Of a stretch of DNA of 64,000 bases, positions 8,005 through 57,801 are shown piece after piece. Source of the DNA: a virus (Duplodnaviria; Caudoviricetes); IMG/VR virus record IMGVR_UViG_3300025674_000014; one strand, written 5' to 3'. Position 1 is the first letter of the stretch; every line of letters starts with the position of its first letter. A model generated the notes under the pieces. It ran no database searches, was not told the origin of the DNA, and saw nothing but the letters and a program-made list of their open reading frames with translations. The position numbers were made by a program, and so were the translations under genes.

Positions 8005-8885
8005 ATAACACAAACATTAGTACACACCTAGGTCAGAGTAGTCAGTATAAGTCGCAATATGACCCTGGATTGTTGGTAAGAGAGCCTCGTCAAAGTAACC
8101 GTTCATATCTTGATATTCAAGATGACAATCTACCGTTTGTAGGTTATGATGTATGGAATGGTTATGAAGTATCTGCTTTGACTAATAACGGTAGACCAGT
8201 AGCTGCAATTGCTAAAGTAATTTACCCGTGTGATAGTAAGTATATCGTTGAATCAAAGTCTATGAAACTATATTGGAATAGTTTCAATATGACCAAGCTT
8301 GGTGATACATCTCAGGATGTGATGGGTGAAATTGAAAAGAGAGCTATTGAAGACCTATCAAACTTTCTTGAAACAAACGTAAGTGTTCAATTGTTTTTCG
8401 ATGATACAGAAATTGAAGAAGGTTTAGACTTTTCTGTTATTGAAAATATCGATATTACAGTTGGTCAAGACGTTGTATTTGATACTTATAACGAAACCCC
8501 TGAACTGTTAGAAGTAGAAGAGCATGATGAGCCTCAAGATATTAATTATATTTCTGGCTTGTTGAAGTCAAATTGTAGGGTAACTTCACAACCTGATTGG
8601 GGTGATGTATACATTTACATGAGAGGTAATAAAGTACCCACTAAAGAATCACTTCTAAAGTATATCGTATCATTTAGAGATGAATGTCATTTTCATGAAG
8701 AGATTTGTGAATGTATTTATAAGAGACTATGGGATACTTTCTCTCCCGAAGAGTTATCTGTAATGTGTTTATATGTTAGAAGAGGTGGCTGGGACATTAA
8801 TCCTCATAGGTGCTCCCATGAGCATCTTTATAATGAGCTTATATTCGATATAGGTAAGATCTTTCCTAAGCGTCCTAGACAATAG
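7992..8885 (+). CDS. queF: NADPH-dependent 7-cyano-7-deazaguanine (preQ0) reductase, bimodular type
   Basis: LGQSSQYKSQYDPGLL N-terminus, QueF motif IVESKSMKLYWNSF, catalytic LLKSNCRVTSQPDWG, FHEE, and YVRRGGWDINP. Confidence 0.92.
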   Translation: MEQLDNTNISTHLGQSSQYKSQYDPGLLVREPRQSNRSYLDIQDDNLPFVGYDVWNGYEVSALTNNGRPVAAIAKVIYPCDSKYIVESKSMKLYWNSFNMTKLGDTSQDVMGEIEKRAIEDLSNFLETNVSVQLFFDDTEIEEGLDFSVIENIDITVGQDVVFDTYNETPELLEVEEHDEPQDINYISGLLKSNCRVTSQPDWGDVYIYMRGNKVPTKESLLKYIVSFRDECHFHEEICECIYKRLWDTFSPEELSVMCLYVRRGGWDINPHRCSHEHLYNELIFDIGKIFPKRPRQ

Positions 8886-10991: not shown

Positions 10992-11068
10992 AGTTTTATG
11001 TATACGGGTTTGTAAGCACTCTACCAAGAGCGCTGGAAATTCTTATAAAAGGGTATCTATCAATGAGA

Positions 11069-24325: not shown

Positions 24326-25670
24326 TATAAATTCCGTTCGTTATTTCATGTTTTGAGTGAGGTAAGTGGATAGGGTGTGGACCAATTCTATCTAACCAAC
24401 CTTTGCTAGCGCTGTGAGGTAACACAGCCCATGATTTAGGTTCTTTTTCACTGCAGAACTTCAAAAAGAAACTTGCAGCATCTTTGGCACATTCTTCATC
24501 AATACGCCATCTACCTAAGTCTTCTCTAAAAATTTCTTCACCATCTGCATCATGAGCTGTACAACACCAGAAATCACAATCAGCATGATCAGGTGTTGTG
24601 ATATCTGCATTAGCTATCCAAATATCTACACACCAGTTCCTACCAAATGCATTCTCCCAATCTTCTTTAGATGCAAATATTTCTGGATTATCTTTATAAT
24701 TAGGTGTTGGTGGCTCGTTTAACTGAGGCCAAGTATACTCCATAACACCTCTTCTATCGAATTTGATACCTGTATAACATTCAAACTCTTCTAAAGTACG
24801 TTCAGTACCGAAACCATACTTACCAAAGTCAAATGTTTGTTCTGTTTCATCCATTCCAAATAAAGTTCTGTTTCTGAAATGACACGCATTATTAACAGAT
24901 GACCAACCATAACTACTACCTGAATCTACATCATGGTCATCCCAATGTTTATCTCTTCCCTCTCTAGTATATTCATGCCAAGCAATAAGCTTATGAGGGT
25001 GAAATAGATCATAACCATGGGTAAATGCTCTTGCTGCAATGCTAATCTCTTCTCCATGAAAATAATAATCAGGATCGTGAGGTATCTCAGTACAAAACTG
25101 ACCTAAGGTAAAACAAAAATGAGCAGAATAAAATCTGGATCTCATTGGTTCGGTTCTAACTCTATAATTAGGCATTGTAGCTGGTATAAAGAAAATAGCA
25201 CCTTCTGGAATAAATCTATCAAATTCCATAAACCAAGGATCGTTTTCTCTACCATCGGGGTCATTATGAGGTTTATATGAAGGTAAATATGCAGTAAGTA
25301 AAGGTTTCTTATGACCTTTCTTTTGTAATTGTTTTACCATATCAATGCACAAGGTATCCCAACCTTCTGCAAACCTGTGATGTGAATCTAGCTGAAGGGT
25401 ATATGTTTCGCCTTTATATTCATTCTGAACAATATTTCTAGCCCAACATACACCTCTGGCTTCTTTCCAATCTACATCGATAATTCTAAATCGTGGGTCG
25501 TTTTCAAACTCTGGAATTTCATCAAACGTATCACCTGGCTTAAATTGTCTACAAATACCAAATCTTAAATTCTCTGGTTTATTTGCATTATTAATACAGT
25601 CGTGTAACGTTTTAGGTAATTCTGGGTCTCTATACGAAGCAATTTGTATAAAAATAGTTTCTTCTTTCAT
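24318..25670 (-). CDS. GT60-like UDP-GlcNAc:polypeptide N-acetylglucosaminyltransferase (GlcNAc family)
   Basis: IFIQIASYRDPEL, RGVCWAR, QLDSHHRF (DSH metal motif), LLTAYLPSY, FYSAHFCF, YYFHGEEISIAARAFTHGYDLFHP. Confidence 0.85.
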   Translation of the reverse strand: MKEETIFIQIASYRDPELPKTLHDCINNANKPENLRFGICRQFKPGDTFDEIPEFENDPRFRIIDVDWKEARGVCWARNIVQNEYKGETYTLQLDSHHRFAEGWDTLCIDMVKQLQKKGHKKPLLTAYLPSYKPHNDPDGRENDPWFMEFDRFIPEGAIFFIPATMPNYRVRTEPMRSRFYSAHFCFTLGQFCTEIPHDPDYYFHGEEISIAARAFTHGYDLFHPHKLIAWHEYTREGRDKHWDDHDVDSGSSYGWSSVNNACHFRNRTLFGMDETEQTFDFGKYGFGTERTLEEFECYTGIKFDRRGVMEYTWPQLNEPPTPNYKDNPEIFASKEDWENAFGRNWCVDIWIANADITTPDHADCDFWCCTAHDADGEEIFREDLGRWRIDEECAKDAASFFLKFCSEKEPKSWAVLPHSASKGWLDRIGPHPIHLPHSKHEITNGIYNE

Positions 25671-25688
25671 AGCATCCTGTTATTATGT

Positions 25689-27215
25689 TTACTTTGGATC
25701 AACAATATCTTTAGTAATCTTATCTAACCAACCATTATTATGGGTGTAAGGTATTACTGTATATGATGCAGGTGTTTCAGGGCATGTCAATGACATAGGA
25801 AATCTAGCTGCATATGGATCTTGTCTCTCGTCGTAAATTTCTTGAATCTTACCAATGTCGTAATCTTCTCTCTTTAGCTCCTTACCTTCTGCATCATGCA
25901 CACCTACATACCAAAACTCAGTATCTTCATAAGTCTCAGGTAACTCATCCCAAGGGACAAAGAAGTCTATACACCAGTTCTTACACCATTCTGTTTGATC
26001 ATGAGGTGTAATATTTTCATAACTAGGGTTTTTATAATCTCTACAATCAGGAGAAATAGCTCTTAGTTTAAAATTAATACCAGCGTACTCTTCATATTGT
26101 TCTACTGTTCTAACTTTACCAAACCCATATTCATCCCCGAAGTTAATTTGATTAGGATCTTCACCATCCATACCAAACAGAATACGGTTACGCTTATGAC
26201 ATTGATCATTTACTTCATACCAGTCATATTCTCTACCGCTTGATCTATTATTATCATCCCAATGGTGAGGTCTACCTTTTCTTGTATATTCATGATATGC
26301 AATAATCTTATGAGGATGGAATAAATCATACCCGTGAGTAAAAGCTCTTACAGCAATACTAATCTCTTCACCGTGGAAGTAATAATTAGGGTCGTGAGTT
26401 ACTTCTTTACACATCTTACCAGATGCAAAAGCAAAGTGAGCTGAATAAAATCTACTTGGAATAGGTTCTCTTTGTTCGTCTCTTTCCATTGACGTGGGTA
26501 AAAAGAACATTGCACCTTCTGGAATGAATCTATCGATAATCATCTTCCAAGGATCTACTTCAAAACCATTAGCAAGCGTACGTTCACCTGTACCGTCTTT
26601 AAATTCTAACCAAGGTTTATAGCTGGTTATGTAACCGGTAAATAGTGGTTTTTCGTGACCTTTATCTTGCATGTAATAATACATGCTTTTCATTTCTGAA
26701 TCCCAGTGATCTACAAATCTATGATGTGAATCAATTGCTAAAGTAAATTCATCTTCACACCATAAGTGTTGTAATGAATGTCTAGCCCAGCATGTACCGT
26801 GACCTCTTCTAGCATCTACTTTAATTACTTGAAATCTATCATCATTTTGCATGAATTCGAACATGTCCTTATCATATTCATCATCTGGGTGCCATTGCCA
26901 GCAGATACCAAATCGTAAATTTTCAGGGTTATCAGCCCTTTTAATCATATCTTTAATAGTTGGAATGAGTTCAGGGTCTCTATATGCAGCAATCTGAACA
27001 AAAATACGTTGATTACCTTTTCTATTTGGATCTACACTTTCATGGTAATATGTACCTACTTTATCCCAGGATTCATTTGTTTGTTGTTTACCTGGGGTGC
27101 TAATTTGTAATGAAGGGGTATCTTGTTGTGAATGTTGTACTTCTACAACTTTTTCACTACTAGTACTTTTTACAGACTTTAATCTATTTTTCCTAACAAT
27201 CTTAATACCTGGCAT
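25689..27215 (-). CDS. second GT60-like polypeptide GlcNAc-transferase paralog
   Basis: IFVQIAAYRDPEL, HGTCWAR, AIDSHHRF, FYSAHFAF, YYFHGEEISIAVRAFTHGYDLFHP; about 68-aa N-terminal extension. Confidence 0.85.
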   Translation of the reverse strand: MPGIKIVRKNRLKSVKSTSSEKVVEVQHSQQDTPSLQISTPGKQQTNESWDKVGTYYHESVDPNRKGNQRIFVQIAAYRDPELIPTIKDMIKRADNPENLRFGICWQWHPDDEYDKDMFEFMQNDDRFQVIKVDARRGHGTCWARHSLQHLWCEDEFTLAIDSHHRFVDHWDSEMKSMYYYMQDKGHEKPLFTGYITSYKPWLEFKDGTGERTLANGFEVDPWKMIIDRFIPEGAMFFLPTSMERDEQREPIPSRFYSAHFAFASGKMCKEVTHDPNYYFHGEEISIAVRAFTHGYDLFHPHKIIAYHEYTRKGRPHHWDDNNRSSGREYDWYEVNDQCHKRNRILFGMDGEDPNQINFGDEYGFGKVRTVEQYEEYAGINFKLRAISPDCRDYKNPSYENITPHDQTEWCKNWCIDFFVPWDELPETYEDTEFWYVGVHDAEGKELKREDYDIGKIQEIYDERQDPYAARFPMSLTCPETPASYTVIPYTHNNGWLDKITKDIVDPK

Positions 27216-27236
27216 ATTTTATTTTATGCCAGGTAT
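27205..27236 (-). promoter_or_regulatory. 12-bp hairpin enclosing the start codon of the GT60 gene
   Basis: Perfect inverted repeat ATACCTGGCATA-(AAATAAAA)-TATGCCAGGTAT; the ATG at 27215-27213 lies in the 3' arm; no U-tract follows. Confidence 0.55.
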
Positions 27237-27249
27237 CGTTGATTTCAAC

Positions 27250-30200
27250 TTAGTTAATACATTTTACTTTATAATCAAACCATTCTTGATGTAAACGAAC
27301 ACAGTTAATGCAAGCTGAATTATGAATACAAGCAGCATTATTAACATTAAGAAATGCAATTCCTACAAATTGTCTTGTTGAACCCCATAAATTTAAACAA
27401 GAATCATTAAAATCTAGCTGTTTACAAACGGTTACTACTTGATTAGTAAAAGTATTTGGCATGTTTGCGCCTATACTACACCATATTATTCCGTTACCAA
27501 AGCTAAATAAATAACATACCGGGTAATTACTACTAGTGTTATTTCCATAAGATACATTTATTTTATAATATAAACAATCAATCATACTCATACAGTAATT
27601 AGAACTACAAACTGAACATTTTACCATACATGCCTTATTTGCCATCATAGGAATGCAATTTGTACAACACATTGTATAATAGGCATACCACCCACCATCA
27701 CTTCCCGGAAGACAAATATTATGTACATATTGACCTCCGCATGTAAAACCACATGTGGTGTTTCTACAACAATAAGCTAATGAATAATTTTCACACCCTA
27801 CATTTGCCAATATGTATTTACAACCGCAACCCCAACATAAACTAGTTGAATCATAACCGGCACAAAGATATTTGTCACACATATTATCTATATGATAATT
27901 ACTCCACCAATTAGATTGCCATGCATAAATACATCTACCTGAATATCCGCAATCATAAAGATTAGCTAATGCACATAAATTACATGTACTACAAGCGGTA
28001 TAAATAGCAGGCATCCAAGAATCATGTTGAGTATACCCAGACGGTTTTGGAGCACACCAACACCAATATAGAGGTGTACCTGAAGCTCGACAATTGTTTA
28101 CGTAATAACTATAAGTAAAACAATTACTACTATCTGCCAACATATTTGTAGTTGCAAATGTCATAGCAGGGTTATATACTTCACAAGAATAACAAAATTT
28201 TATACATTGACCGGTAGTTAAAGTAGAATAATCTACAGAACATGTTATAGTGCTATATGAAGATACGTTAGAGTTAATAGTAGGGTAGTTATATGTAGCT
28301 TTAAATGTACCAGCGCTACAAAAATAAGGGTCACACCCATATGTAATAAACCCGCCAAATGGAAAACATATTTTCCATGTCCATCCAAAAACACAAGAAG
28401 TGCTTATACATCTAACTTTATACCCGTAACCACTGGTTGGTGTACCCCAGGGTAATATATAGGTGTTAGAAGTATTACCATAATTGTCTGTTCTACTTGT
28501 CCACCAAGGGTGCGCTTTTGCTTGATTAAAGCATCTAAATCCTTGCGTACCTGTACATTTTGTTTCGGGCATTAAATTAGTACAAGCATAACTACCGCTG
28601 GTATAATTAGCACAGGTATAGCTAGTTATTGTTGGACAAGTCGCGCCTGAACATATTAAATCAGTTACACTTGAACATTCATTAGGCACGGGAGGTGTGC
28701 TCGTAACTGTGGGTGTTCTTGTCTGTGTAGGTGTATGTGTACTTGTTCTGGTCGGCGTTCTCGTCTTGGATTCTGTAATAGACTTCGTTCTGGTTGGTGT
28801 TCTTGTCTTCGTTCTAGTACGTGTAGGTGTATAGGTTGGTGTTCTTGTACGCGTAGGTGTTCTTGTTCTCGTGTTAGTAGGCGTTTGTGTACGCGTACGT
28901 GTGTAGGTTGGTGTTCTTGTACGTGTACGTGTACGTGTTTGGGTTGGTGTTCTCGTACGTGTACGTGAATGTGTAATAGATTTCGTTCTGGTTGGTGTTT
29001 GTGTACGTGTAGGTGTACATGTTCTCGTGCGTGTATAGGTTGGTGTTCTCGTACGTGTACGTGATTGTGTAATCGACTTCGTTCTGGTTGGTGTTCTCGT
29101 ACGTGTAGGTGTTTGTGTACGTGTACGTGTTTGGGTTGGTGTTCTCGTACGTGTACGTGATTGTGTAATCGACTTCGTTCTGGTTGGTGTTCTCGTACGT
29201 GTAGGCGTACATGTACGTGTTCTTGTTCTCGTACGTGTAGGCGACTGGGTTGGTGTTCTTGTACGTGTAGGTGTTTGTGTACGTGATCTTGTACGTGTAC
29301 GTGTACGTGTAGCTGATTGAGTTGGTGTTCTTGTACGTGTAGGTGTTTGTGTACGTGTTTGGGTTGGTGTGCGCGTTCTAGTAGGTGTTTGTGTACGTGT
29401 CTTAGTTCTTGTTTGCGTTCTCGTACGTGTATAGGTTGGTGTTCTTGTTCTCGTACGTGTATATGTAGGAGTTTGTGTACGTGTATTTGTTGGTGTACGC
29501 GTACGTGATGCTGTACGTGTCGGTGTTTGTGAACGAGTAGGTGTTTGTGTACGTGTACGTGTTGCTGATCTGGTCGGTGTGCGTGTACGTGTACGTGTCT
29601 GTGTAGGTGTTTGTGTACGTGTTTGTGTTCTCGTTCTACTTGGTGTAGGTGTTTGTGTTATTGATTTAGTACGTGTAACGGTTGGTGTTCTTGTACGTGT
29701 TACAGCTGGTGTTGCTGTTCTGGTAGGTGTTCTTGTACGCGTAGCTGTCTGAGATTTTGTTCTCGTTTGCGTAGCTGTACGTGTATTTGTTGGTGTTTGC
29801 GTACGTGTCGGTGTTTGTGTACGTGTCTTAGTTCTTGTTCTCGTACTCGTAGCTGTTCTCGTATTAGTAGCTGTCTGCGTATTAGATTTTGTTCTAGTAG
29901 CTGTTGGCGTTTGTGTACGTGTCTTAGTAGCTGTTCTAGACTTAGTACGTGTTGGTGTTTGCGATCTCGTACGTGTATTGGTTGGTGTTTGCGTACGTGT
30001 AGCTGTTTGAGTGTTAGATTTCGTTCTCGTCTGGGTTGGTGTTCTTGTACGCGTACGTGTAGATGTTTGTGTTGCTGTACGTGTTGATGTTGGTGTTTGT
30101 GTTCTGGATCTTGTACGTGTACGTGTCGGTGTATTTGATCTCGTACGCGTACGTGTAGCAGATTGTGTAGGTGTTTGTGTACGTGTCTTAGTTGACGTAT

Positions 30201-33200
30201 TAGTAGCTGTCTGCGTTGCTGTCTTAGTGTTTGTTGGTGTTGGTGTTTCAGTACGTGTTCTAGTACGTGTTCTTGTGGGAGATTGTGTTCTCGTTGGCGA
30301 TTGTGAACGTGTTCTTGTAGGTGTCTGTGTTCTTGTTCTTGTAGACGTTCTTGACTGTGTAGACGTTTTCGTCTTTGTAACTGTATTAGTACGTGTGTTT
30401 GTAGGAGTTTGTGTTCTTGTCTGCGTTGCTGTCTGCGTTGCTGTCTTAGTGTTTGTAGGTGTTTGTGAACGCGTACGTGTTACCGTTTCTGTTGCTGTTC
30501 TGGTAGACGTTCTTGTTTGTGTGGCTGTTCTTGTTCTCGTTGGCGTTTCTGTGCGTGTACGAGTTGGTGTACTACTACGTGTTTTAGTATTTGTAGCGGT
30601 TTGTGTGGTTGTTCTAGTGCTTGTCTTAGTAGGTGTATGTGTTCTAGTAGGTGTTTGTGTACGTGTTCTTGTATTAGTTTCGGTTCTTGTCTGCGTATTT
30701 GTTCTTGTAGATGTAGGTGTTTGTGTATATGTAGGTGTTGATGTTCTTGTATTTGTAGCGGTCTGCGTGTAAGTTGATGTAGATGTTCTTGTGTTAGTAG
30801 CAGTTTGGGTATTTGTTTTTGTTTGTGTTGGTGTTCTCGTTGATGTTTGAGTTGATGTTTTAGTAGATGTTCTTGTTTGTGTGGCTGTACGTGTGTTAGA
30901 TTTCGTTCTCGTTTGTGTGCGTGAACGTGTTTGCGTAGCAGTTTGTGTTGCCGTACTTGTAGGTGTTTGTGTTCTTGTACGTGTACTAGTAGCGGTATTT
31001 GTAGGGGTTTGTGTTCTTGTACTTGTACTGGTTTTGGTATTTGTTGGTGTTTGTGTTCGCGTACGTGTATTTGTTGGCGTTTGTGTACGTGTTTCAGTTG
31101 GTGTTTGTGTACGCGTACGTGTATTTGTTGCTGTTTGAGTAGGGGTTTGTGTTCTTGTTTGCGTTGGTGTCGGATAACGTGAAACAGTTGCAGTAGATGT
31201 TTGTGTGTTCGTTCTCGTCTGTGTAGATGTTCTCGTCTGCGTAGACGTTCTTGTCTGCGTAGATGTTCTTGTATTGGTTGGTGTTCTTGTACGTGTACGA
31301 GTGTTAGTTGCTGTTGGCGTTTGTGTACGTGTACGTGTTTGTGTATTTGTACGTGTATTTGTCGGTGTTTGTGTTCGTGTACGTGTACTAGTATTTGTAG
31401 GTGTTTGTGTGCGTGTACGTGTTTCTGTTGGTGTAGGCGTTTGTGTTCTCGTTCTTGTCTGAGTAGCAGTTCTTGTCTGTGTTGATGTACGTGTGTTAGT
31501 AGCGGTTTGCGTAGACGTTTGCGTAACCGTTCTCGTATTAGTAGCTGTTTGAGTAGCTGTTTGTGATGACGTTCTTGTTTGTGTTGGTGTACTTGTAGCT
31601 GTTCTAGAAGCTGTCTGGGTAGGTGTTCTAGTACGTGTAGCTGTCTGGGTTGGTGTTCTAGTTTGGGTTGGTGTGCGTGTACGTGTTACGTCAGGTGTAT
31701 CTGTTTGACTTGGTGTTCTCGTAAACGTAGGTGTTCTTGTTTGTGTTCCGGTCTGCGTTGATGTTGGTGTTTGTGTACGTGTACGTGTTTGTGTATTTGT
31801 TGGTGTTTGGGTGCGTGTACGGGTTTGTGTACGTGTACGTGTATGTGTTGGTGTTTGCGTTCTTGTCTGCGTCGGTGTTTGTGTACGTGTACGTGTGTTA
31901 GTAGATGTTTGTGTATTTGTTTTTGTTCTTGTTTGAGTAGCTGTTCTTGTCTGCGTAGATGTTCTCGTCTGTGTTGGTGTTTGTGTTCTCGTCTGAGTCG
32001 GTGTTTGTGTACGTGTACGTGTTTGTGTGTTTGTTCTTGTCTGTGTAGGTGTTTGTGTGCGTGTTCTTGTCTGCGTACGTGTACGTGTATTAGTAGCTGT
32101 TTGTGTGTTTGTTCTTGTCTGCGTAGATGTTCTCGTCTGCGTAGATGTTCTTGTCTGTGTTGGTGTTGGATAACGAGAAACCGTGCTCGTAGCTGTTCTG
32201 GATTGGGTAGCTGTTCTAGTTTGAGTATTTGTTCTCGTCTGGGTATTTGTTCTTGTTTGTGTTGGTGTCTGAGTACTTGTTCTTGTCTGAGTAGCTGTTC
32301 TTGTCTGCGTACGTGTACGTGTTTGTGTTCTTGTCTGAGTAGCTGTTCTCGTCTGAGTAGCTGTTCTCGTTTGAGTAGCTGTTCTAGTATTAGTTGGTGT
32401 TTGTGTACGTGTTTGTGTAGCTGTTTGTGTGTTTGTTCTCGTTTGTGTTGCTGTTCTCGTTGGTGTTTGGGTACGTGTACGTGTACGTGTACGTGTTTGA
32501 GTAGGTGTTTGTGTTCTCGTTCTAGTGTTAGTAGGAGTTTGTGTTCTTGTTCTAGTTGATGTATTAGTAGCTGTTCTTGTTTGTGTAGATGTTCTTGTAT
32601 TGGTTGGTGTTTGCGTTCTTGTAGGTGTTTGTGTTTGGCTTGCTGTTCTCGTACTTGTTGGTGTTTGTGTACGTGTACGTGTATTTGTAGGTGTTTGAGT
32701 TCTTGTTCTTGTCGGTGTTTGCGTTCTTGTTCTAGTATTTGTTGGTGTTTGCGTACGTGTACGTGTACGTGTATTGGTAGCTGTTCTTGTTTGTGTAGAT
32801 GTTCTTGTTTGTGTCGGTGTTTGTGTTCTTGTTTCGGTAGCAGTTTGGGTTGGTGTCCTTGTCTGCGTAGCTGTTTGAGTAGGTGTTTGTGTTCTTGTTC
32901 TCGTTGGTGTTAATCTAGGTAAGTCAAATCTATGACGTAATGCTGAGTAACTAGCTTCTATTTGATTTTCAGTTAATGCATCGTTGTATACTTTAACGAT
33001 AGCAATTTCACCGTTCATATCTCTAACTGAACCATAACTTTTACCAACGCTTAACAATGTTTCTGATGTATTTCTGCTAGAAGGTATCGAAACGGTACCT
33101 TCAAGATCAGCATTGAAATACATTTTCATATTAGAGCTATCAACAGTTATTGCAAATTGGAACCAACCGGTTGATGTGGTAAGAGCTGTTGGCATTGTAA

Positions 33201-33318
33201 TGGTGTAAGAAGAGCCACCAAGTATTAAATTAGCATATAACTTATTGCCTACAGGTAATCCTGAACGCTCTTTTTGCACTAATAACCAATTGCTTGAATC
33301 CCCCACATAAGTAAACAT
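27250..33318 (-). CDS. C-terminal segment of the giant mucin-like fibre protein (its frame is open back to ~33432)
   Basis: Begins mid-LamG domain, followed by a ~1400-aa (T-X)n stalk and a Cys-rich C-terminal region; the sequence upstream of the Met continues the homologous domain ([20 protein letters not shown]). Confidence 0.8.
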   Translation of the reverse strand: MFTYVGDSSNWLLVQKERSGLPVGNKLYANLILGGSSYTITMPTALTTSTGWFQFAITVDSSNMKMYFNADLEGTVSIPSSRNTSETLLSVGKSYGSVRDMNGEIAIVKVYNDALTENQIEASYSALRHRFDLPRLTPTRTRTQTPTQTATQTRTPTQTATETRTQTPTQTRTSTQTRTATNTRTRTRTQTPTNTRTRTQTPTRTRTQTPTNTRTRTQTPTSTRTASQTQTPTRTQTPTNTRTSTQTRTATNTSTRTRTQTPTNTRTRTQTPTQTRTRTRTRTQTPTRTATQTRTNTQTATQTRTQTPTNTRTATQTRTATQTRTATQTRTQTRTRTQTRTATQTRTSTQTPTQTRTNTQTRTNTQTRTATQSRTATSTVSRYPTPTQTRTSTQTRTSTQTRTNTQTATNTRTRTQTRTRTQTPTQTRTNTQTRTRTQTPTQTRTQTPTQTRTSTQTRTATQTRTKTNTQTSTNTRTRTQTPTQTRTQTPTHTRTRTQTRTRTQTPTNTQTRTRTQTPTSTQTGTQTRTPTFTRTPSQTDTPDVTRTRTPTQTRTPTQTATRTRTPTQTASRTATSTPTQTRTSSQTATQTATNTRTVTQTSTQTATNTRTSTQTRTATQTRTRTQTPTPTETRTRTQTPTNTSTRTRTQTPTNTRTNTQTRTRTQTPTATNTRTRTRTPTNTRTSTQTRTSTQTRTSTQTRTNTQTSTATVSRYPTPTQTRTQTPTQTATNTRTRTQTPTETRTQTPTNTRTRTQTPTNTKTSTSTRTQTPTNTATSTRTRTQTPTSTATQTATQTRSRTQTRTKSNTRTATQTRTSTKTSTQTSTRTPTQTKTNTQTATNTRTSTSTYTQTATNTRTSTPTYTQTPTSTRTNTQTRTETNTRTRTQTPTRTHTPTKTSTRTTTQTATNTKTRSSTPTRTRTETPTRTRTATQTRTSTRTATETVTRTRSQTPTNTKTATQTATQTRTQTPTNTRTNTVTKTKTSTQSRTSTRTRTQTPTRTRSQSPTRTQSPTRTRTRTRTETPTPTNTKTATQTATNTSTKTRTQTPTQSATRTRTRSNTPTRTRTRSRTQTPTSTRTATQTSTRTRTRTPTQTRTKSNTQTATRTQTPTNTRTRSQTPTRTKSRTATKTRTQTPTATRTKSNTQTATNTRTATSTRTRTKTRTQTPTRTQTPTNTRTATQTRTKSQTATRTRTPTRTATPAVTRTRTPTVTRTKSITQTPTPSRTRTQTRTQTPTQTRTRTRTPTRSATRTRTQTPTRSQTPTRTASRTRTPTNTRTQTPTYTRTRTRTPTYTRTRTQTRTKTRTQTPTRTRTPTQTRTQTPTRTRTPTQSATRTRTRTRSRTQTPTRTRTPTQSPTRTRTRTRTCTPTRTRTPTRTKSITQSRTRTRTPTQTRTRTQTPTRTRTPTRTKSITQSRTRTRTPTYTRTRTCTPTRTQTPTRTKSITHSRTRTRTPTQTRTRTRTRTPTYTRTRTQTPTNTRTRTPTRTRTPTYTPTRTRTKTRTPTRTKSITESKTRTPTRTSTHTPTQTRTPTVTSTPPVPNECSSVTDLICSGATCPTITSYTCANYTSGSYACTNLMPETKCTGTQGFRCFNQAKAHPWWTSRTDNYGNTSNTYILPWGTPTSGYGYKVRCISTSCVFGWTWKICFPFGGFITYGCDPYFCSAGTFKATYNYPTINSNVSSYSTITCSVDYSTLTTGQCIKFCYSCEVYNPAMTFATTNMLADSSNCFTYSYYVNNCRASGTPLYWCWCAPKPSGYTQHDSWMPAIYTACSTCNLCALANLYDCGYSGRCIYAWQSNWWSNYHIDNMCDKYLCAGYDSTSLCWGCGCKYILANVGCENYSLAYCCRNTTCGFTCGGQYVHNICLPGSDGGWYAYYTMCCTNCIPMMANKACMVKCSVCSSNYCMSMIDCLYYKINVSYGNNTSSNYPVCYLFSFGNGIIWCSIGANMPNTFTNQVVTVCKQLDFNDSCLNLWGSTRQFVGIAFLNVNNAACIHNSACINCVRLHQEWFDYKVKCIN
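28690..32910 (-). repeat. (Thr-X)n low-complexity coding stalk, approx. bounds
   Basis: Thr/Ser at every second residue; 6-nt periodic DNA, GT-rich on the + strand. Confidence 0.9.
28942..29229. repeat. three tandem 96-bp coding repeat units
   Basis: A 72-bp identical stretch at 29038-29109 and 29134-29205 (period 96), plus a diverged copy from 28942; encodes TPTRTKSITQSRTRTRTPT. Confidence 0.85.
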
Positions 33319-33407
33319 TACTTGAGTTTCATTTGATGTAAAAGAACTATCATCAAAATAAACCCATGAAATAATTGTAAAACTATCATTTAAAACAGGT
33401 AACGTAT

Positions 33408-36400
33408 TTAAATTAGAAACCGTTCTATATAATTAACCGCATCACCTGTAGAGGTTGGCCATACATAACTCTTAGGACTTGTTTGATTTAATTCTACATC
33501 ACCTACTATTACACTATCAATGCTATTTGATGTAATATCACCTATTCCAGTAGCTGGATAAAACTCTCTAGATTGTGGTGTGAAATTACTTGTGTATCTA
33601 GCAGTACCAATTGTAAGTCTAAACTCATCTATATAACCAGTTAGTTTTGATGTACCGTCAGATTTTGATCCAATTATTAATTGACCACCTGGAGCCGTAC
33701 CGGATATTGAAACGGTAGCTTCTTGTGTACCGTCAATGAATAATCTTGCAGTACTACTATCTCTTACAGCAGCTAAATGATACCAAGTGTTATTTGATAA
33801 TGTTGAAGTTGAATATGTATCAGCGCTTATTATACCACCAGAGAATAAAACTTTACCATTTGCTTCAACAGTTAATAATACCCCACCAGATCCACCACCT
33901 CTTGTATCAAAAATGTACTGTCTACTACCTATAGAACTTACATAAACCCATGTTTCAAAAGTAAAGTCAGATGAACCTAAAGCTAACCCAGAAGAATAAT
34001 TTAGGTAAGCTGTTCCATCAAAATAAGCACTACTACCACCAAATTTAAATTGATCGGTACTAATTTCTGTATTTGTATTTGATGCTGTATTAGAAGCACT
34101 ACTACTATCAGTGAACGTTGTAGAACCATCGGTTCCGTTCATATGTAATAGTAACTGAACGTCTGAATAATATGTATCCGAAAGATCTCCGGTTGTGGTT
34201 GTATTATCGGCATCGTAATATGCTATCAAATCACTTTGAATTGCAGATGTCGCTGTTTGCGTTGGTGTCTGTGTAGCTGTTCTTGTTTGTGTAGGTGTCT
34301 GTGTACTTGTTCTTGTTTGTGTTGGTGTCTGTGATCTGGTTTGTGTAGATGTTCTAGTCTGGGTAGCTGTTGCTGTTTGGCTAGCTGTTCTAGTTTGTGT
34401 TCTTGTTCTGGTGTTAGTAGCAGTTTGTGTAGACGTTCTTGTCTGTGTACTTGTTCTTGTACTTGTAGGTGTTTGTGTTGTTGTTCTAGTAGATGTATTT
34501 GTAGGTGTTTGTGTTGGTGTTTCTGTTCTAGTTCTTGTTCTTGTAGGTGTAAAGGTAGGTGTTCTGGATTGCGTAGGTGTATTTGTTTGACTAGATGTTC
34601 TTGTTTGTGTTCTTGTTCTTGTACTGGTTACTGTTTGGGTGTTTGTTCTTGTTTCAGTTGGTGTTCTTGTATTGGTAGGCGACTGGGTTGGTGTTTGTGT
34701 TGATGTTGGTGTATTAGTAGGTGTTGAAGTATTTGTTCTTGTATTAGATGGTGTTCTTGTTTGTGTAGGTTGTGGTGATCTTGTTCTAGTAACTGTTTGG
34801 GTGTTTGTTCTAGTTACAGTTGATGTTTGTGTAGGGGTTTGTGTTCTAGTTCTAGTATTAGTAGGTGTAGGTGATAACTGTGGTAAGTTAAAACGTTTAA
34901 ATGTGGTTTCGTAATTTAACTGAACCTGGTATAACGTCAATGCTGTGTCATAAACTTTTAATGATGCATATTTACCATCCATAAACCCGCTCAAACCATT
35001 ATAGCTTGCCATTCTAGGTCTTGGATTTCCGTTATTCAAGTTACTAACATCTCCTTGGAAGTCAATTAATGTTGAATGATCTTGATAACCATCAACATAA
35101 ATTCTCATATCATTAAACTTACCAGGGTAGAATGTTGTTGTAGGTCTTCTAAAGTTACCGGTGTAACGAGCAATACCTTTAGTTATTCTAACATCCTGTA
35201 AATAACCGTTCATGTATTGAGATCTATTTTGACTACCAATATAAAGATCTCTTGTACTGTTATATACTGAGCTTGTACCTACATCTGTATTACTAGTTGA
35301 TATACCATCAACGTAAACTCTTAATGAAGTACCATTTCTAACTAATGCAACATGGTGCCATGCATTATCGTTAACAGCAATTGTGCTTGTATTTGTATAT
35401 GTCCAACCTGTACCAGTAGTACTAATTGCACCAACTGCATAACCACCATTACTATCAGATAACGCTCCTAAGTAGAATGCTGAATTAGAAGATGCTCCAA
35501 ATGACGATTGACTTGCTATAATCTGATAATTACCAGTAGAAGGCCCACCTGGTGATTTCATCCAAGCTTCAATAGTGAAATCTCCATCACCAAAATGCCA
35601 ATCATCGCTATCACTATATAATAAATAGTCACCGCTACCGTCGAAGTAACCACTACTTCCACCCCACTTATAATCGTTAGTAAGAATTTCAGTATTACCT
35701 GCAACATCTGATGGTGTTCTTGCAGCGCTACTACTATCGGTAAATGTAGTAGATTCATTCGCACCGTTCATATGCAATAACAACTTAACATTCGGGTAAT
35801 ATGAATCTGTAGGTACATTAACATCACCACTTAAGGTTGTGTAAATATGATGCCATTTACCATCTGTTATATTAGTTGTACCTGTTGCACTTAAAGCACC
35901 TGCTGTTGCTTCAGGTAATGTATAAACTTGCAATGTACCAGATAATGGATCAACATTCATCTGGAAATTATCAATTGTATCTCCGGTAGGTCCATCAAAT
36001 TTGAAAATGTTCTGACTAATACCATTACTCAATGATTTAGAATTAGATTGAACCCACATACCTACACTGAATGAACTTAATGAATTATATCCGCTTAATT
36101 CAGCATAATCACCATGCCCGGACATCGCAACATAATAAGATGATAAACTATCCGCAACATTGTAATTAATTGATGGTGAATATACATAACTTGGGAACAT
36201 ATCTTGAGGAGTATCAAAATCTGCTGTATATCTTGCAACATCTCTTGTTACTCTCAACCCGTTCATCCATCCATCTAAACTTGCACCTTGACCAGTTTCA
36301 CATGCAACGTATATATAATTACCGTTAGTAACACTGTCACCCCAAGTAGTTTCAGCTATCTTAGTGCCATTAACAAATAATCTCATTACTCCAGATTCTC

Positions 36401-39400
36401 TAGAAACTGCTAAATGATACCACTTATCAATTTCCATTCCGTGAGTACCGTTAATTCTTTGAGTATCGGTATAATGTACAATTAATTTTGTCTGACCTAT
36501 TAAGAAACCAAAACCATTTCCAGATCCAGGATCGCCACTAGTGATAATCATTTGATGATTTTGCCAATTAGTTGGCCAAGAATCACTTGTAGGCATACTT
36601 CTTAATTTAACCCAGGACTCAATAGTAAAGTCGTTGGTATAAAATCTCATATCATAACCAGCATATGCTGGTTTCATAATACCATCAACGTTACCGGAGC
36701 GATTAAATTCACCACTACTACTACCAAATTTGTATTCAGATGTAGTAATAAATGCATCTCCTAAAGTAATAAATTCAGCATTAGCGCTACTACTATCAAC
36801 AAATGTTGTTTGACCGCTTAATCCTTGGAAGTTCAATACAATGGCATTATAATCTGAATATTCGTCTCTATTTGCTATAGTAAGATCATTATTATTTGAG
36901 CTAATGTCCTGCCATAGATAAGGTGATTGACCTGTTGATGTATTCGTTGGTGTGGGAGTTACTAAAGGAGCTAATGTTTTATTAAACTTAGATAATAAGT
37001 AGTTATTCATTCTAGCTACTTCATAATCTGTTAATGCGGTACCATGAACTGCTACTGCGCCAACTTTACCATAAAATCTATTACCTTCACCTTGATCGGA
37101 GAATATATTAAAATTATGTCCAGGGTAAAATCTATAACCGTATGGATCGGTTATATCTATGTTAAATGCTTGAACACCGTTGATAAAACCAGACATTTTA
37201 TCTTTTGTTCTTCTGTAAGTAATAACATCAAATCTACCTTCACTTACAGGTAACTTAGAGAATCCCCAACTACCACTTAATGGATATACATTATCACCAT
37301 GTCCGATACCAATGTTATAATATCTATGATATGCATCATAACTACCGTTACCCATGTTCATAGATATACCCATATCAGGGTAATTGGTATCAAACAAGTA
37401 CATTTCCCTAGTTTCTTCATTAGGCTGCATTGCTAATGTAATGGTCCAATCAGATGCAGTAAGAGGTTGGAATGTATTGTTATACCCGTAACCATTTTGC
37501 CATTCTAAATGTCTTGGATTAATATAATTATCATCAACTAATCTATAACCGGCCATTATAGTTTCGTAATGATTATCAGATAAATCATACCAACGATTAC
37601 CACCACTTGCAGGATAACTAAATGTATTTGTTGAATCTAAGAATAAGCATAAGTTTCTTGTTGAAACACATGCACCTTGAGTTACTGTAGGTGTGTTTGT
37701 AGGCGTTACAGGTGGTGTACATACTGATAATGTATATCTACTTGATAATGCTGCGTAATCAGCGCAAACTTGTTCGTGAGATAAACCACATGTTTGATAC
37801 CATCTAAATGTTGCAATACTACCCTTCCAACGATAATCGTTCCTTTCTTGACGATAACCACCTAACATAGGCAATAAATTACAAGAAGATAATGAAAGTA
37901 TATTAGAAGTATTTTCTGCTGATAATCCAGGCACACCATTTAAATAAGCATAACTTACATTATTCTTTCTTACAAATGCTACATGACTCCATTCACATAA
38001 TGTTAAAGCACTTAATGGGTAAGTCCAAACATCACCACCTGTTGAATATAAACCATTAGTGTAAAATCTAGCTCTACACTGATCATCAACTAACCACCAA
38101 AGTTGGTAATCATGGCCATAAGTACCTATTCTTTTCGTATTACCTAAAATTGTAGAATTAACCCTAGTAGGGCAAATCCAAGCTGTTGCTGAAAAGTCGC
38201 CGGATAAAGTTTCAAAAGCATTAGGGTTGTTAAAATAAACTGCTCCAGAACAACTGCAACGTTCATCCCAACATAAGGTACCACCACCATCATATTCGCA
38301 ATTGCTATACCAAGGGTAGTTGCTTATTGGGTAACATGTACCGTATGGGCAACAAAATTTATGACAACATTTCTGTGAATAAAGTGTCAAGTCATTACAA
38401 AATAACGTACCATCGTTACCATGATTAGTTAAGTCAACAATATTACTTTCGGTACACCCGTAAGCTGATCTTGTATAATTAGGATATGATTGTTGATTAT
38501 AAAAATCGTAACTAATTGTTAAACAATCCGGTGCTGCTACATATTGTGTAGCAGTAGGTGTAGGGGTAACACCAATAGTTGGTGAACTACTTCTTGTTGG
38601 AGTATAACTTCTAGTTCTAGTTACGGTAGATGTTTGTGTTGGTGTTTGTGTATTAGTAGGAGCAGGTGTAGCTTGATACCTAGCAGACAAACCTTTGAAG
38701 TCAGAAATTACTTCATCTCTTGTCATACCAAACCCACAATAAACTCTATATTGAGCTAAATTACAAAAAGCTCCAAGTGTGTATGGACGACCGTAATCAT
38801 AGATATTGTAACAATTATTTACAGGGCAGCAAAATAGATCACCTGCATTTGAATAAATTGCAATTTCATTAGCTCTTCTAGAAACATTAACATAATGGAA
38901 TGAACTTAATGTAAGCTGTTGTGTACATAAAGTAGGTAATCCCTGACCACTAACTATATATCTACAATCGCTACCTCTCCAATATATATCAAACGGGTTG
39001 TTATTCCATGAATACCTATCTACTACGCTTTGATCACCGCTTGTTGAAACGGGTCTTGCCCAGAATGCTACGGTAAAATCTTCGCAGAAGAATGTTAAAT
39101 CTGTATTTTCAGGTAAACACATACCACTTCTGAATGAAAGTGTACCCTGATATGGGTCTGCACAATAACAAGAATTGTATACAGTAAGTCTACCATGATT
39201 ATTTCTTGGTGATAAATCTTCAACATAAACATATTGACCATTCTCACCATCTCTTTCAGGTAATGTGCAATATGGGTAAGATTGTCCTTGATAAAAATCT
39301 AAGTGTAATACTAATTTATCACTCTTTAAAAAGCAACCTGCAGGCGTAGTGGTAGGTGATAACCCTATAGTATTTGTTCTTGTTGGTGTGTTAGATGATG

Positions 39401-42400
39401 TTGGTGTAGGGGTTACTAATGGAATTGGTGTGTAATCATACTTACATGCATCATGATTGTAATCTTGAGCTATTTCAACATCAGATAATACTCTATTATA
39501 TAATTTAGCTGAATAAAATTCACTAGCTGCACAACCATTACAAAACATTGTTAACCAACCGTTAGTACATCTTGGTGTCATGTAGTACAATTTTCTTTGA
39601 TAACCGTCTTTACAGCAACCATTAACGTATATTCTAAAACACCCGCATGTGTTATCATAAGATGCTGCTACTGTGGTAATATTAGTAGACGATAATAAAG
39701 GCTGGCAACCCCAAGTATAACCAATATCACTTCCACATCTATCATATATATAAAAATCTAATGTACAATCGGTACGTCTGTAAAGATTGAATACATTTTC
39801 TAAACACATTAAACTACCTTCAGTTATACAATAAGGCTTAAATGTGGTGATAATTGTAAACCCAGGTGAATTATCAACCCTATAAATTGCGGTATCAGCA
39901 TCACACCAACTAGAGCAACACTTGTTTACGTTGCACATATAAATACCACCACCACAACACATTGAAATACTACGTCTTTTATCGCAGTATGTACTGAAAG
40001 AGTTATACAAATCATTGTTAAAACAGCCAATACATCCGTTTACTAAGTTATAAACATCACGGTTACATTCAGTGCTACCTGCAGATAACTCAGGAAAACT
40101 ATTTGGATTGCTAACATCTATATGCATTATCAATCCGCATTTATTTACACCTGTTTGGGTTCTTGTTGGTGTGTATGTCGGTGTATTACTGCTAGTACGA
40201 GTTTGTGTCTTAGTTACTGTAACATTACAAGTTGCGGTAGCTGAATGTGTATTAGTGTATGTAGCAGTTCTAGCTGGTGTGTTAGTTTGAGTTACTGTTG
40301 GTGTATTTGTTTGTGTGCAAGTAGGTGTGGTTGTAAACGTTGCTGTTTTGGTGTTTGTTAATGTTTTAGTTGGTGTGGTGGAACGTGTTTTAGTTGGTGT
40401 ATTTGTAGGTGTTTGTGTAGGTGTTTGTGTTCTTGTTCTTGTATTGGTTCTTGTTTGTGAAGGTGTTCTTGTTTGTGATTTAGTTCTTGTTCTTGTTTGT
40501 GTTACTGAATATGTAGGGGTTGTGGTAGGTGTTTGTGTAGGTGTTTGGGTTAATGTTGAAGTATTTGTTAATGTAGGTGTAGGTGATGAACCTTGAGTTG
40601 GTGAAACTGAAACTGTTTTAGTTGGTGTTGTTATTGGGTAATTTCCAGGGTATGGATAATAACCTAAGGTACATGTCCAATATGGAGGTTCTTCACCCCA
40701 ACCGAAAATAGTCATGCATTTTTCTGTCGTGGTATACAACCTTGTTTCTGCCATATAAGTTGTATTGTTACTGGCGTTTCTATTATTGAAACAAGCACAT
40801 TTTATACCTCTAGGACCACTACCAACATTTCTTTCACCTAAATAACATCCATTCATCCAGAATCTATAATAAGCTGATCCTGAAGAGTCTAAACATTGCG
40901 AAACCATATAATGGTTCCAATCACATACACTAAAGTTACAGAAACAACTATCTACATCAAAACCAACTGCATATACGTTACAACAATGAACGTAAAAACA
41001 ATTGTTGCTATTCATGTAAATTTCACTGTTACCGCATCTATTACTACATAATAATGAAAACCCGCATTGAGTAGTAGCTTTCCAATAACCTTGTAATGTC
41101 CACCCCCAATCGCACCCATCTAACATTATACCACAATTAATAAGTGATCCAGATGTAGGGTGAACTGTTGTGGTCATACAAATGTAAGTACAATTGCAAT
41201 CAAATTTAACCGACCCGGTACCATATCTATACTCATCTGTCGTAAATTTACCGCATGTTATACCAACATTACCGTAATTACAAGCACCGTAATCACATAT
41301 AAACCCATCACCATTATTACCATCCATTCTGAATGTATAAATGTTGTTATTGTAATAAGGGTCGCCTATAGCATTTTCAGTGTTTGTAACGGTAGGTGTT
41401 CTTGTTCTTGTACTTGTATTAGTTGGTGTACAAGTTCTTGTTTTAGTACATGTAGATGTTTTAGTTCTAGTACATGTATACGTAGGCGTTTTACTAGTTG
41501 TTGGTGAAGGCGATCTAGTAGGTGACGATGTTTGGGTTGGTGTTGGGGTTGTATAATGACCTTCAGGACCACTTATAGTGTAACTTAAAATAACAACACC
41601 GGATGAACCAGGTAACCCGTTAGGAAATTTATCTCCTCCATAGTTATAACTATAAACACCTGCACCACCATTACCGGTGTTAGGTATTGGGTCACTATTA
41701 CAACCATTACCACCTGTTCTTGCAGCATAATTACCAGCAGGAGCACCACCAGTTGCGTAAGTAGCAGATAACCCGGTAATATCACTTGTACAACCATAGC
41801 CGTTTTCATCTAAAGCACCACCACCATAAGTTGGCGGGCACCATGAATATGGTCTATATCCACCGCAATTACCTTGACCAGGGCAACAACCGCCTCTATT
41901 TGACCAGTTAGTACCGCCGCCACCGGAACCACCGGAGCAGGAAACACCATAACAACAATCAGCTCCCCTACCACCACCAAATGCTGTTAAATGTAAAAAT
42001 ATACTATCTTCACCGTTACAGAAATATCTACCTTGACCAACCTGAACGGTATGTGTACCAATTGATGAAGGAGCTAAGTACATAGAACCTTCTAAATAAC
42101 CACCGGCACCGCCACCAGCTGCTTGAGTACCATTGTTACGTACAACGCCACCAGAACCACCTGCACCTACTACCAGATAACATAATAAACAATTATCACC
42201 GTGATATTTGATACACATTGTATCGGTTTCATTGAAAACGTGTATACATTTATTACCCCATTGGTAACTACAAGTACCACCTGAAATAGCTATACTATTA
42301 TAAGTTGGTGTTGGAGTTGAACAAACACTTGACGTTTGAGTAACGGTTCGTGTTTGGGTAGCAGTCATTGTATTTGTTGGTGTAGCAGTTTGTGTAGCTG

Positions 42401-45400
42401 TAATTGTATTACATCTTGTTTTAGTTTTGGTAGGTGTTACAGCTCTTTCAGGTAAGTCGTACATATACCTGTATTTTTCGGTATCGTAATTTTCTTTAAC
42501 TTGAGCTTGGTTTAATGCACAATTATAGTATTTGTATGAACCTAAACCACCGCACATACGACAATTACCATCAGGAGCAGTACCAATAGTAAAGTAATTA
42601 TCAGCTGAATTACTCCAATAACAGGTCATACAAGTACCTTCGGAGTTAATCATATCAACTAATTCACCATTAACAAACAAACATGTATGATCTTTACTAT
42701 AAACACCTACAACATGAGCCCATTGCCTATTATGACCTTGCCCATTGAACAAATCGTTAGTTCTGGTTGCACCTGCACAAGCGCAATAATATCCACCGTT
42801 ACTTCTTCTAGTACCGAAAACAATACCTCTACCGTCGTAACTTCTAGGATAACCGTTCCATTCTGATACAAATAACCAAAAACCATAATCAGCAGCACCA
42901 TTACGACCGTAAGCTGCAATTGTTCTAGCGTAATACCTATTATCGATACATACCCAAGCTTCAACCGAACCCTCATCAGGGTTAATAGTGTCAGCCCAAT
43001 AATTAGGGGTGCTATATAATCTATTATCACCATTCCAATAAGTGTATTGCATACCGGTACCGGTTGATGTTAACGTCGGGTAATTTGTATAGCAAACATA
43101 TATATCAGTATCACCTTGTAAATTATAGAAAAAGCAACCACCTGATGCAGGGTAACTCAACGTATTATTAGGCTCAAAATATAAACATAAATTTGATGAA
43201 TACCCAACTGATGTTGGTGTGTAGTTAATAGTATTTGTTTTTGTAGGTGTGGGTGTATGCACGTAATTAGTACAAACATCACTTGCATCTTGATTAGCAA
43301 CTAAGTTACTTGTAACTATTCCACTTGTTTGTGTTTGTGTTCTTGTTGGTGTGCTACTATAAACTGGTGTGGGTGTTGGTGTGTTTGTACTAGTTTGGGT
43401 AGCTGTTCTTGTATTTGTTCTAGTACGTGTACCTGTAGGTGTTTGAGTTATTGTCTCAGTTATTGATTTTGTTATTGTCGGTGACTGAGTTATTGATTGG
43501 GTTTGTGTTGGTGTAAATGTATAGGTAGGTGTTTGTGTATTTGTAGGGGTAGATGTTTGAGTTTGAGATCTTGTTTGTGTAGGTGTTTTTGTTTGTGTTT
43601 TTGTTATTGTTCTAGTTGTGGTATTAGTTTTAGTAACTGTACCTGTTTGAGTTGGTGTTTGGGTTTGGGTAGGTGTTTGAGATCTAGTAGGTGTAGGTGT
43701 AGTATTAGGATTATCAGGGAATGGGTACTTAATAACTACAATACCATTACCACCGCGTGATCTAGGACCACCACCACCACCGGTACCATCAACACCTGCA
43801 GAGTTACTACCGCATCTACGACCACCGGAGCCACCACCGCCGCAGCCACCAACACCACGGCAGCCACCACCACCACCACCGACCCAACATAGGGTACCAA
43901 ACATTTCGAAACATACACCGACACCACCATCACCGCAACAACCAGTAGTGCCGTCACAAGATAACTGACCTGGTCCACCGGCACCACCACCGCCACCACC
44001 ACTAGATGAAGCACAAACTGCTCCACCATCATGACCTTGACCTGGTATACCAGCACCACCACAACCGCGATAACCACCGTTATCAACACTTGTACCACCT
44101 GCTCCGGAACCACCGGATTGACCGTTAAAACGACCACCGTTCCATGGAAGACCGGAATAACCACCTTGACCACCACCGCAAGCACTAATGGTACCGAACA
44201 TTGAGTTATAACCTCTAGTATAACCTTGATTCCAACTTGGGTTACCAAATGATGCAGCACCTACACTTACTTTAAAATTACCTGTTGTAGCTTGGAAAGC
44301 GCTCAATACAACACCACCGGCACCACCACCGCCAAGACCGTAGTTATACTCACCACCAGCACCACCACCACCACCGGCAACGACCATGGCTTCAATAGTG
44401 TTATAAACTTCACTACTAGCGGTATTGTTTACATAAAAATCATAATCATATACACATCTATAATCTGTACAAAATATATGGTAACGAAAACCTTCACATT
44501 GAATTTCACAACCACCAAACGCTCTTATATAATAAGAACCAGGTGAAGGTGTTACCGTTTGGGTAGCTGTTTGAGTTCCTGTTCTGGTTTGTGTTGGTGT
44601 CTGAGTAGCTGTTCTTGTTTGTGTAGGGGTATGGGTACCTGTTATAGTTTGTGTTGGTGTCTGGGTAGCTGTTCTAGTTTGGGTTGGGGTTCTTGATCTA
44701 GTTGGTGTTTGTGTTCTCGTTCTAGTTTGGGTGCGTGTTCTAGTTTGGGTGGCTGTTCTAGTTTGAGTAGCTGTTCTAGTTTGTGTAGATGTACGTGTTT
44801 GGGTTGGTGTTTGTGTTCTAGTTTGGGTAGGTGTTTGCGTTGGTGTTAATTGTGGTAAATTAAAACGTTGGAATGTTGCTTCATAATCATCTTGTACATC
44901 ATCAGCAGACATTTCCCTGTTATACATTTTAAACTGAGATATATCTCCGTTTAATCTACCTTTAGTATAACTATAACCACCAATTCTAGGTCTAATGTTA
45001 CCGTTATTTAAATCAGTAGGCGTTATATAATTATTATAAGATACTTCTGGATAACCATCTACATATAATGTAGATACCGTACCCGTACCAGGATAAAACT
45101 GATTATTTGGTGGTGTAAAACTACTTGTATAACGAGCAACTCCTTTAGTTACTCTAACATCTTGCATGTAACCATTTAAAGGTTCAGTTGAATATCCTGC
45201 AATATCACCAATTTCAGAATATGTCTGGGTATAGTTTCTTGTATCTGTTGCAGTATCAACTAAAGTACCGTTAACAAACATTCTTAAACTACCGCTTTCT
45301 CTTGTAAAAGCATAATGGTACCATTGACCTGAAGTTACACCATTCCATTCTACTATTCTTGCTCCTTGTGCATACCAACCAGTATCGCCATTAGCTCCTG

Positions 45401-57400: not shown

Positions 57401-57473
57401 TCGTGCTACTAACATTTAGCCTATTTTCTTCGATAAACTGTAATATTTGCCCGGAAAACGTGATTAAGCCCAT
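33408..57473 (-). CDS. giant virion fibre/adhesin-like protein (8021 aa; ~10,074 aa if joined to 27250-33318)
   Basis: Uninterrupted 24-kb ORF preceded by TAAATA; alternates (T-X)n stalks with many LamG/ConA-like domains (LLLHMNG...FTDSS...WYHxA) and two Gly-rich domains; no signal peptide is evident. Confidence 0.9.
47690..50460 (-). repeat. (Thr-X)n low-complexity coding stalk, approx. bounds
   Basis: About 920 codons of T-X alternation between LamG blocks. Confidence 0.9.
52590..56865 (-). repeat. (Thr-X)n low-complexity coding stalk, approx. bounds
   Basis: About 1400 codons of T-X alternation following the N-terminal domain. Confidence 0.9.
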
Positions 57474-57519: not shown

Positions 57520-57801
57520 TTAAGAAAAATTAATTTTTTCTGACTTAAGTTTAAACTTAAACTCTTTCTTGTATTTATTAGAAAAGTATGTAATTTCTTT
57601 ACCTAGATATTCAACATAGTTTACATTTATAACAGCTAGAGGCTCGTCTTTATAATAGACATATGTAGTGGATAAACACAACTCTCCTTCAAGAGGTATT
57701 GCCGGTAAGATAACATAATCATCTTTACCTGCTTGAAATGAAACTGCATTATCTTGAGCATGTGGCTCACCACCTGTTCCTATTAATTTAAATGTATCCA
57801 T
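57520..57801 (-). CDS. small stand-alone paralog of the C-terminal domain of the upstream mucin-like protein
   Basis: LIGTGGEPHAQDNAVSFQ...KINFS aligns with LTGTGSAPHPAANGVTFQ...NVNFST; 1-nt stop/start overlap with the upstream gene. Confidence 0.75.
   Translation of the reverse strand: MDTFKLIGTGGEPHAQDNAVSFQAGKDDYVILPAIPLEGELCLSTTYVYYKDEPLAVINVNYVEYLGKEITYFSNKYKKEFKFKLKSEKINFS

Follow-up and report, generated by a model that had tools for sequence, protein, structure and literature searches.

A single missing base very probably divides one giant phage gene of about 10,000 codons in a virus genome record

The DNA analysed here, a stretch of 64,000 nucleotides from IMG/VR virus record IMGVR_UViG_3300025674_000014 (Caudoviricetes; hereafter referred to as the window), contains two adjacent ORFs of 8,021 and 2,022 aa on the minus strand, and we conclude with high confidence that these ORFs belong to a single gene in nature. 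The phage population would carry this gene as one frame of about 10,040-10,074 codons, and this record alone would be without one T, the loss of which would shift the frame and lead translation into a stop four codons further on. The split is probably private to this record, with a consensus or assembly error as its likeliest cause; a rare, very recent variant would be a less likely origin. The frameshift is without regulatory meaning. The features discussed below are listed in Table 1.

Table 1. Positions of the giant gene, its segments, and the adjacent transferase genes in the window
Feature	Position	Strand	Remarks
Whole giant gene, read through	27250..57473	-	10,074 codons; start peptide MGLITFSG
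ORF A in record	33408..57473	-	8,021 aa
Open -1 frame	27250..33432	-	2,060 codons; contains ORF B
One-base deletion site	33422..33423	-	T (coding strand) in other data sets, GAA TCG/TCT GTT
Internal paralogue of junction	50970..51023	-	Alignment across the break
N-terminal non-repetitive domain	56853..57473	-	207 aa; no family match
Junction module	32899..34259	-	454 aa; two Laminin_G_3 matches; break at module residue 280
Distal Thr-X stalk	28708..32898	-	1,397 aa, 47% Thr; missing from a product ending at 33408
Repeat-length difference zone	29014..29563	-	Window exceeds L034 by 96 nt (32 codons)
C-terminal Cys-rich head	27253..28707	-	485 aa, 11% Cys; without a Pfam family; missing from a product ending at 33408
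Two PF11397 (GlcNAc-transferase, GT60-type) genes, paralogous	24318..27215	-	E 4e-65 and 2e-69; directly downstream of giant gene

According to the initial annotation, the 8,021-aa ORF breaks off while the -1 frame runs on into the 2,022-aa ORF, and this layout was borne out by translation. ORF A, which starts at 57473, ends at a premature TAA (33410-33408) four codons past the frame change. Past a TAA at 33435-33433, the -1 frame is open from 33432 to 27250, and the 2,022-aa ORF (ORF B) is just the portion of this frame that begins at its first Met codon (33318). An open frame of this length, 2,060 codons at a GC content of 37-43%, cannot be a product of chance. When the two frames are joined with an X at the break (residue 8018), the resulting reading spans 30,225 nt, i.e. 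10,074 aa plus the stop codon. An intact internal paralogue of the junction, which had been placed near position 51000, was located at 51023-50970 (GGT GGT GTA AAC TAT TTA CAA AGT GTT TCT AAT TTA), and its alignment with the two joined frames crosses the break, with 51% identity over about 230 aa.

The base missing from the window is present in other public data sets. Logan contigs placed on positions 32880-34300 originated from four independent runs of four studies, namely one freshwater run (X4), one lagoon run (X5), and two seawater runs (X14 and X17). In all four, an extra A (plus strand) follows position 33422, at depths of 27.3/27.3, 5.5/5.5, 16.9/16.9, and 17.9/17.9, respectively, i.e. 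100%, a value that applies to the contigs, in which rare variants may be concealed. The X4 and X5 strains show no other differing letters around the break, and the seawater strains are diverged, with approximately seven differences per 136-nt contig near it. The latter also carry a C-to-A change at 33421, which converts TCG to TCT and is synonymous (Ser) in the fused frame. Changes at 33403 and 33379 were found by hand check to be at third positions and synonymous in the joined frame, and the change at 33301 likewise affects a third position.

A search pattern allowing either junction allele had no match in IMG/VR, and the same pattern matched two JGI metagenome contigs (L032 and L033), both of which have the extra base. 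These contigs derive from a relative that is ~83% identical to the window in nucleotides, as measured in the glycosyltransferase genes, and in which a single ORF, at least 2,846 aa long, passes straight through the break (…VNYIESVSNL…). Over the 35 codons that separate the break from the Met codon at 33318, the window and L032 differ by two synonymous and no non-synonymous changes, leaving the protein identical; since only synonymous changes have accumulated, this stretch is coding in the joined frame. Elsewhere in L033 (Ga0070745_1020857), at ~2600-2760, the sequence leaves the Thr-X frame for ~40 codons (…KHLLERSLLQKHQHK…) and then returns to it. This drift is probably a pair of assembly indels in the repeat and shows that such repeats attract errors.

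Seven further contigs were retrieved by exact matching of the protein encoded by the downstream glycosyltransferase gene; four of them reach the break, and all four contain the extra base. The near-identical assemblies (n = 4) share 98.6-99.9% identity with the window. The missing T at 33422 is the lone gap in the alignment of L036 (12,907 nt, 99.89% identity) and in the break-spanning alignments of L034 (8,298 nt) and L037 (5,143 nt), while in L035 and in a second alignment of L034 (29,563-15,689) all gaps besides this T are confined to the Thr-repeat zone at 28.9-29.6 kb. The translation of L036 proceeds for 3,321 codons without a stop. In addition, a single complete product of 10,042 aa is called on each of two ENA contigs, ERZ27275011:k141_316624 (50,358 nt) and ERZ27275015:k141_229568 (31,902 nt), the first 10.8 kb of which are colinear with the window without any gap and which share its start peptide. 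The 32-aa difference between these products and the 10,074 aa of the joined reading corresponds to a 96-nt change in repeat length at 29,014-29,563. Between the record and ERZ27275011:k141_316624, this difference in the Thr-X stalk is either a true repeat polymorphism or an assembly collapse.

The base is present wherever another data set covers the break, in ten public data sets in all (the four runs and six contigs), and no second allele was found among them. The initial annotation had suggested that homologues be searched for a fused ORF and had held that relatives with two separate genes would speak against fusion; the search found a single frame in relatives and near-identical assemblies alike, and the relatives keep one gene. 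Its central proposal, one ~10,074-aa gene split by one lost base, is upheld by the fused ORF in relatives and in independent assemblies.

The identity of the lost base had to be revised. A missing A, giving ACG (Thr), had been proposed, whereas the other data sets give T on the coding strand and TCG (Ser). The lost base is therefore a T on the coding strand (A on the plus strand) between 33423 and 33422, and its return restores GAA TCG GTT (Glu-Ser-Val). The Ser at the break fits the Q-S-V-S-N-L of the paralogue and is invariant in the alignment of orthologues and paralogue. On the plus strand, the context of the indel is CCG[A]TTC, in which the longest base run is two; no run of more than three, no homopolymer, and no simple repeat lies there. 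The break had also been described as lying in the middle of a LamG domain. It does lie inside a conserved module, but Pfam puts it ~9 residues before the detectable LamG core, so that the description holds only if the LamG domain is nested. An AlphaFold2 model of the intact junction module, based on a 3-row alignment, gave a mean pLDDT of 52, with values of <50 around the junction.

Neither the deletion allele nor a separate distal gene was recovered in the collections that were searched. No match to the junction was obtained by Megablast in a set of 50,697 phage records, and a search of IMG/VR returned only distant LamG relatives matching query residues 1-66. No gene on record was found to encode exactly the 2,022-aa product of ORF B, which fits a split that is private to this record. 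The surrounding 1.5 kb is present in 20 runs from 17 studies, and two possible source runs contain 0.98 and 0.97 of its words. The shortfall in these two runs, 2-3 of 145 words, is what would be expected if only the junction words were missing, and is suggestive in this respect.

At the break, co-occurring strains give rise to short alternative unitigs (assembly bubbles). Because such places are prone to contig-merging faults, a consensus error is likely here. The record is otherwise accurate, with no other indel relative to the four near-identical assemblies outside one Thr-repeat zone, and a random sequencing error is somewhat less expected because of this accuracy and because the base lies outside a homopolymer. 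Among the three causes that had been put forward for the break, an indel private to this record, due to error or to a rare variant, is favoured; the third, a length switch, is disfavoured, as there is neither a repeat tract at the break nor a second allele in the four runs and six contigs.

The strongest alternative, which we nonetheless consider unlikely, is a real and recent truncating mutation in the assembled haplotype. The gene would then yield an 8,021-aa product without the last LamG domain, including its core, the 1,397-aa stalk, and the Cys-rich head, and the deletion allele would be a genuine, natural 'tip-less' variant, which is the lesser reading of the locus. Such a mutation would agree with the lack of any other indel relative to L034-L040 outside one repeat zone, which indicates that the record is not generally error-prone, with the position of the deleted base outside any homopolymer, and with the wholesale difference of the head between relatives (see below), which marks the distal part as evolutionarily plastic. 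However, the allele is missing from all ten other data sets, including the X4 and X5 strains, which are identical to the window around the break. When a 60-nt query in which every 31-mer lies over the deletion junction was used, no run was listed, including the possible source runs, a result that refers to two sampled words and to contigs, which drop rare variants. The fully open downstream frame is what a very young lesion would leave, but it is equally compatible with an artefact.

Programmed -1 frameshifting is known from phage tail assembly chaperones (lambda G/GT type), which share with the present locus overlapping frames related by -1 in a structural region. We consider it very improbable that a programmed -1 frameshift, transcriptional slippage, or a phase-variable length switch produces a short and a long product here. 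Although the relation of the 0 to the -1 frame is that which a -1 shift bridges, no slippery heptamer (X XXY YYZ) is present in the 8-codon frame overlap (T TAT ATA GAA CGG TTT CTA ATT TAA), and no repeat or long base run occurs at the indel. The 121 nt around and past the break form modest hairpins and fold somewhat better than shuffled sequences (z = -2.18), but this signal is without meaning because there is no slip site. Unlike in the lambda G/GT type, the two-frame layout is not conserved; relatives and near-identical strains are all in frame, so that recoding is neither conserved nor needed, and a second allele was found in none of the four runs as represented by Logan contigs.

Least credible of all are two genuine adjacent genes with Met 33318 as the start of the second. 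An ATG there and a 2,022-aa ORF listed by the ORF finder speak for this layout; against it, the homologous module is unbroken over the site in the paralogue, the relative, and near-identical strains, the 35 codons upstream of this Met are conserved as protein, the Met itself aligns inside the LamG core (QVMFTYV / QIMYLYV), gene callers report one product on other assemblies, and no GGAG-type Shine-Dalgarno sequence precedes it, the last point being weak as other genes here also have none. Nor does the locus look like a decaying pseudogene, as there is a single lesion with 2,060 open codons downstream and it is the sole indel relative to L036 over 12.9 kb, or like a phase-variable locus, as there is no homopolymer or tandem repeat at the indel and the extra base is at 100% depth in the four runs (contig depth).

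For the single gene, broken in this record most likely by a consensus or assembly error, the joined protein was divided into segments by Thr content. The N-terminal 207 aa have no homologue at E <= 0.001. Six to seven major Thr-X stalks (1,419 aa, 919 aa, four of 91-199 aa, and 1,397 aa) and three short Thr-X linkers (31, 35, and 91 aa) were identified. Together, the Thr-X segments account for 4,339 of the 10,074 residues (43% of the length) and consist of 47% Thr (45-49% per segment). Laminin_G_3 domains (PF13385) were detected above the gathering score in at least 14 separate stretches, with E values down to 2e-99; the domain just past the break matches profile positions 12-150 with an E value of 1e-17. 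Two Gly_rich_2 domains were also found. A search of the ESM Atlas with the Cys-rich head produced no usable match. The head of the relative in L032 (4754-6300) is Cys-rich too, yet it has no detectable similarity to that of the window (27253-28707), whereas the LamG module 1,400 residues upstream of the head is about 94% identical between the window and L032. The divergence of the head beside a conserved LamG module fits an exchangeable or hypervariable distal tip that may serve in binding.

The two PF11397 genes and the FkbM-methyltransferase/HtrL fusion gene that comes after them keep their synteny in relatives, the PF11397 pair in L032 and L034-L038. Members of PF11397/GT60 include the polypeptide GlcNAc/GalNAc transferases of mucin-type O-glycosylation in Dictyostelium and Trypanosoma. 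The whole group of genes (21722-27215, minus strand) is a candidate for a phage-encoded mucin-type O-glycosylation cassette. Two traits of mucin-type O-glycoproteins, namely long Thr-rich stalks and polypeptide glycosyltransferase genes alongside, are both present, as a match at the sequence level.

A perfect 12-bp inverted repeat (ATACCTGGCATA … TATGCCAGGTAT, 27205-27236, minus strand) is located 14 nt past the stop codon of the giant gene, and the ATG of the first GT60 gene sits in its 3' arm. This repeat could function as a terminator or in the occlusion of the start codon. Upstream of the giant gene, a protein of 880 aa (57801-60443, minus strand) consists mostly of the Thr-X repeat, and its C-terminal ~90 aa resemble the adjoining 93-aa ORF (57520-57801, minus strand; …GTG.EPH…NAV.FQ…). 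Since the 880-aa protein is mostly Thr-X too, the Thr-X design is used by several neighbouring genes. Neither this 880-aa protein nor a neighbouring one of 1,110 aa had a tblastn match in the 50,697 phage records.

The window also encodes a major capsid protein of the Gp23 family (9450-11027, minus strand; E 6e-89), which reaches no more than about 34% identity to any entry of the 50,697 phage records, with cyanophage gp23 as the best match (about 33%). Further genes specify a baseplate OB-domain protein (Phage_base_V) and several glycosyltransferases. By this gene content, the phage belongs to a deep, uncultured, and distant T4-like lineage that occurs in freshwater, lagoon, and seawater runs. 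In addition, a gene for a QueF-like nitrile reductase (PF14819 and PF14489) is present at 7992-8885 (plus strand), which suggests that the phage may carry out 7-deazaguanine (preQ1-type) DNA modification.

The gene product would be an extended fibre borne on the virion. Such a fibre, very long and flexible, would show many lectin-type domains and a variable tip and might thereby adhere to the glycans of hosts or particles, and its Thr-X stalks would probably be O-glycosylated by the two adjacent GT60-type transferases. The complete picture, in which the full polypeptide of 10,042-10,074 aa is made, mounted on the virion, mucin-like, O-glycosylated by the GT60 pair that the phage itself encodes, and composed as a string of lectin domains with an exchangeable Cys-rich tip, is offered tentatively, as a reading that is possible rather than probable.

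In the phage collection, the junction module matches best to gp045 of cyanophage S-RIM32 (YP_009301713.1; Kyanoviridae, T4-like), with 26.8% identity over 89% of 310 aa. This protein contains LamG and carries the annotation 'virion structural protein', and its gene is one of three large structural genes that lie in a row. However, it comprises 1,362 aa, compared with about 10,000 here, and neither kilobase-long Thr-X stalks nor an adjacent GT60 pair was seen there. The giant protein is best filed as a new and extreme member of the LamG-bearing structural or fibre proteins of phages. Mucin-type systems likewise combine repeat stalks with PF11397 transferases; here the setting is a phage, and the glycosylation is putative. 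The strict Thr-X alternation also differs from the classical PTS repeats of mucin-type stalks.

The term 'giant' is applied by the respective authors to single phage polypeptides, namely to the tape measure/RNAP protein of Thermus phage P23-45, with 5,002 residues (PMC10770324), and to the virion RNAP of N4-like phages, with ~3,500 residues (PMC13434306). These proteins have half to a third of the length found here, and their functions and domains are unrelated. In our search of the literature, no phage protein of at least 10,000 aa was found named, a result that comes from a phrase search and as such proves nothing, and nothing pertinent to a mucin-like system of phages was found.

For annotation, the two reading frames ought to be joined into one gene and the break marked as probably an error of the sequence, since databases would otherwise take up a false pair of genes for products of 8,021 and 2,022 aa. 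A single gene of 30 kb, about one-eighth of a genome estimated at about 250 kb, is maintained stably: strains from freshwater, lagoon, and seawater samples, in no fewer than 12 data sets, have it intact, and the drift over the former 'gene boundary' is synonymous. If the complete picture outlined above is true, the product would be the longest phage protein documented and would be accompanied by a phage-encoded mucin-type glycosylation system. The gene is a good candidate for encoding the longest phage protein and may serve as a model for how very long adhesive phage fibres are built and glycosylated.
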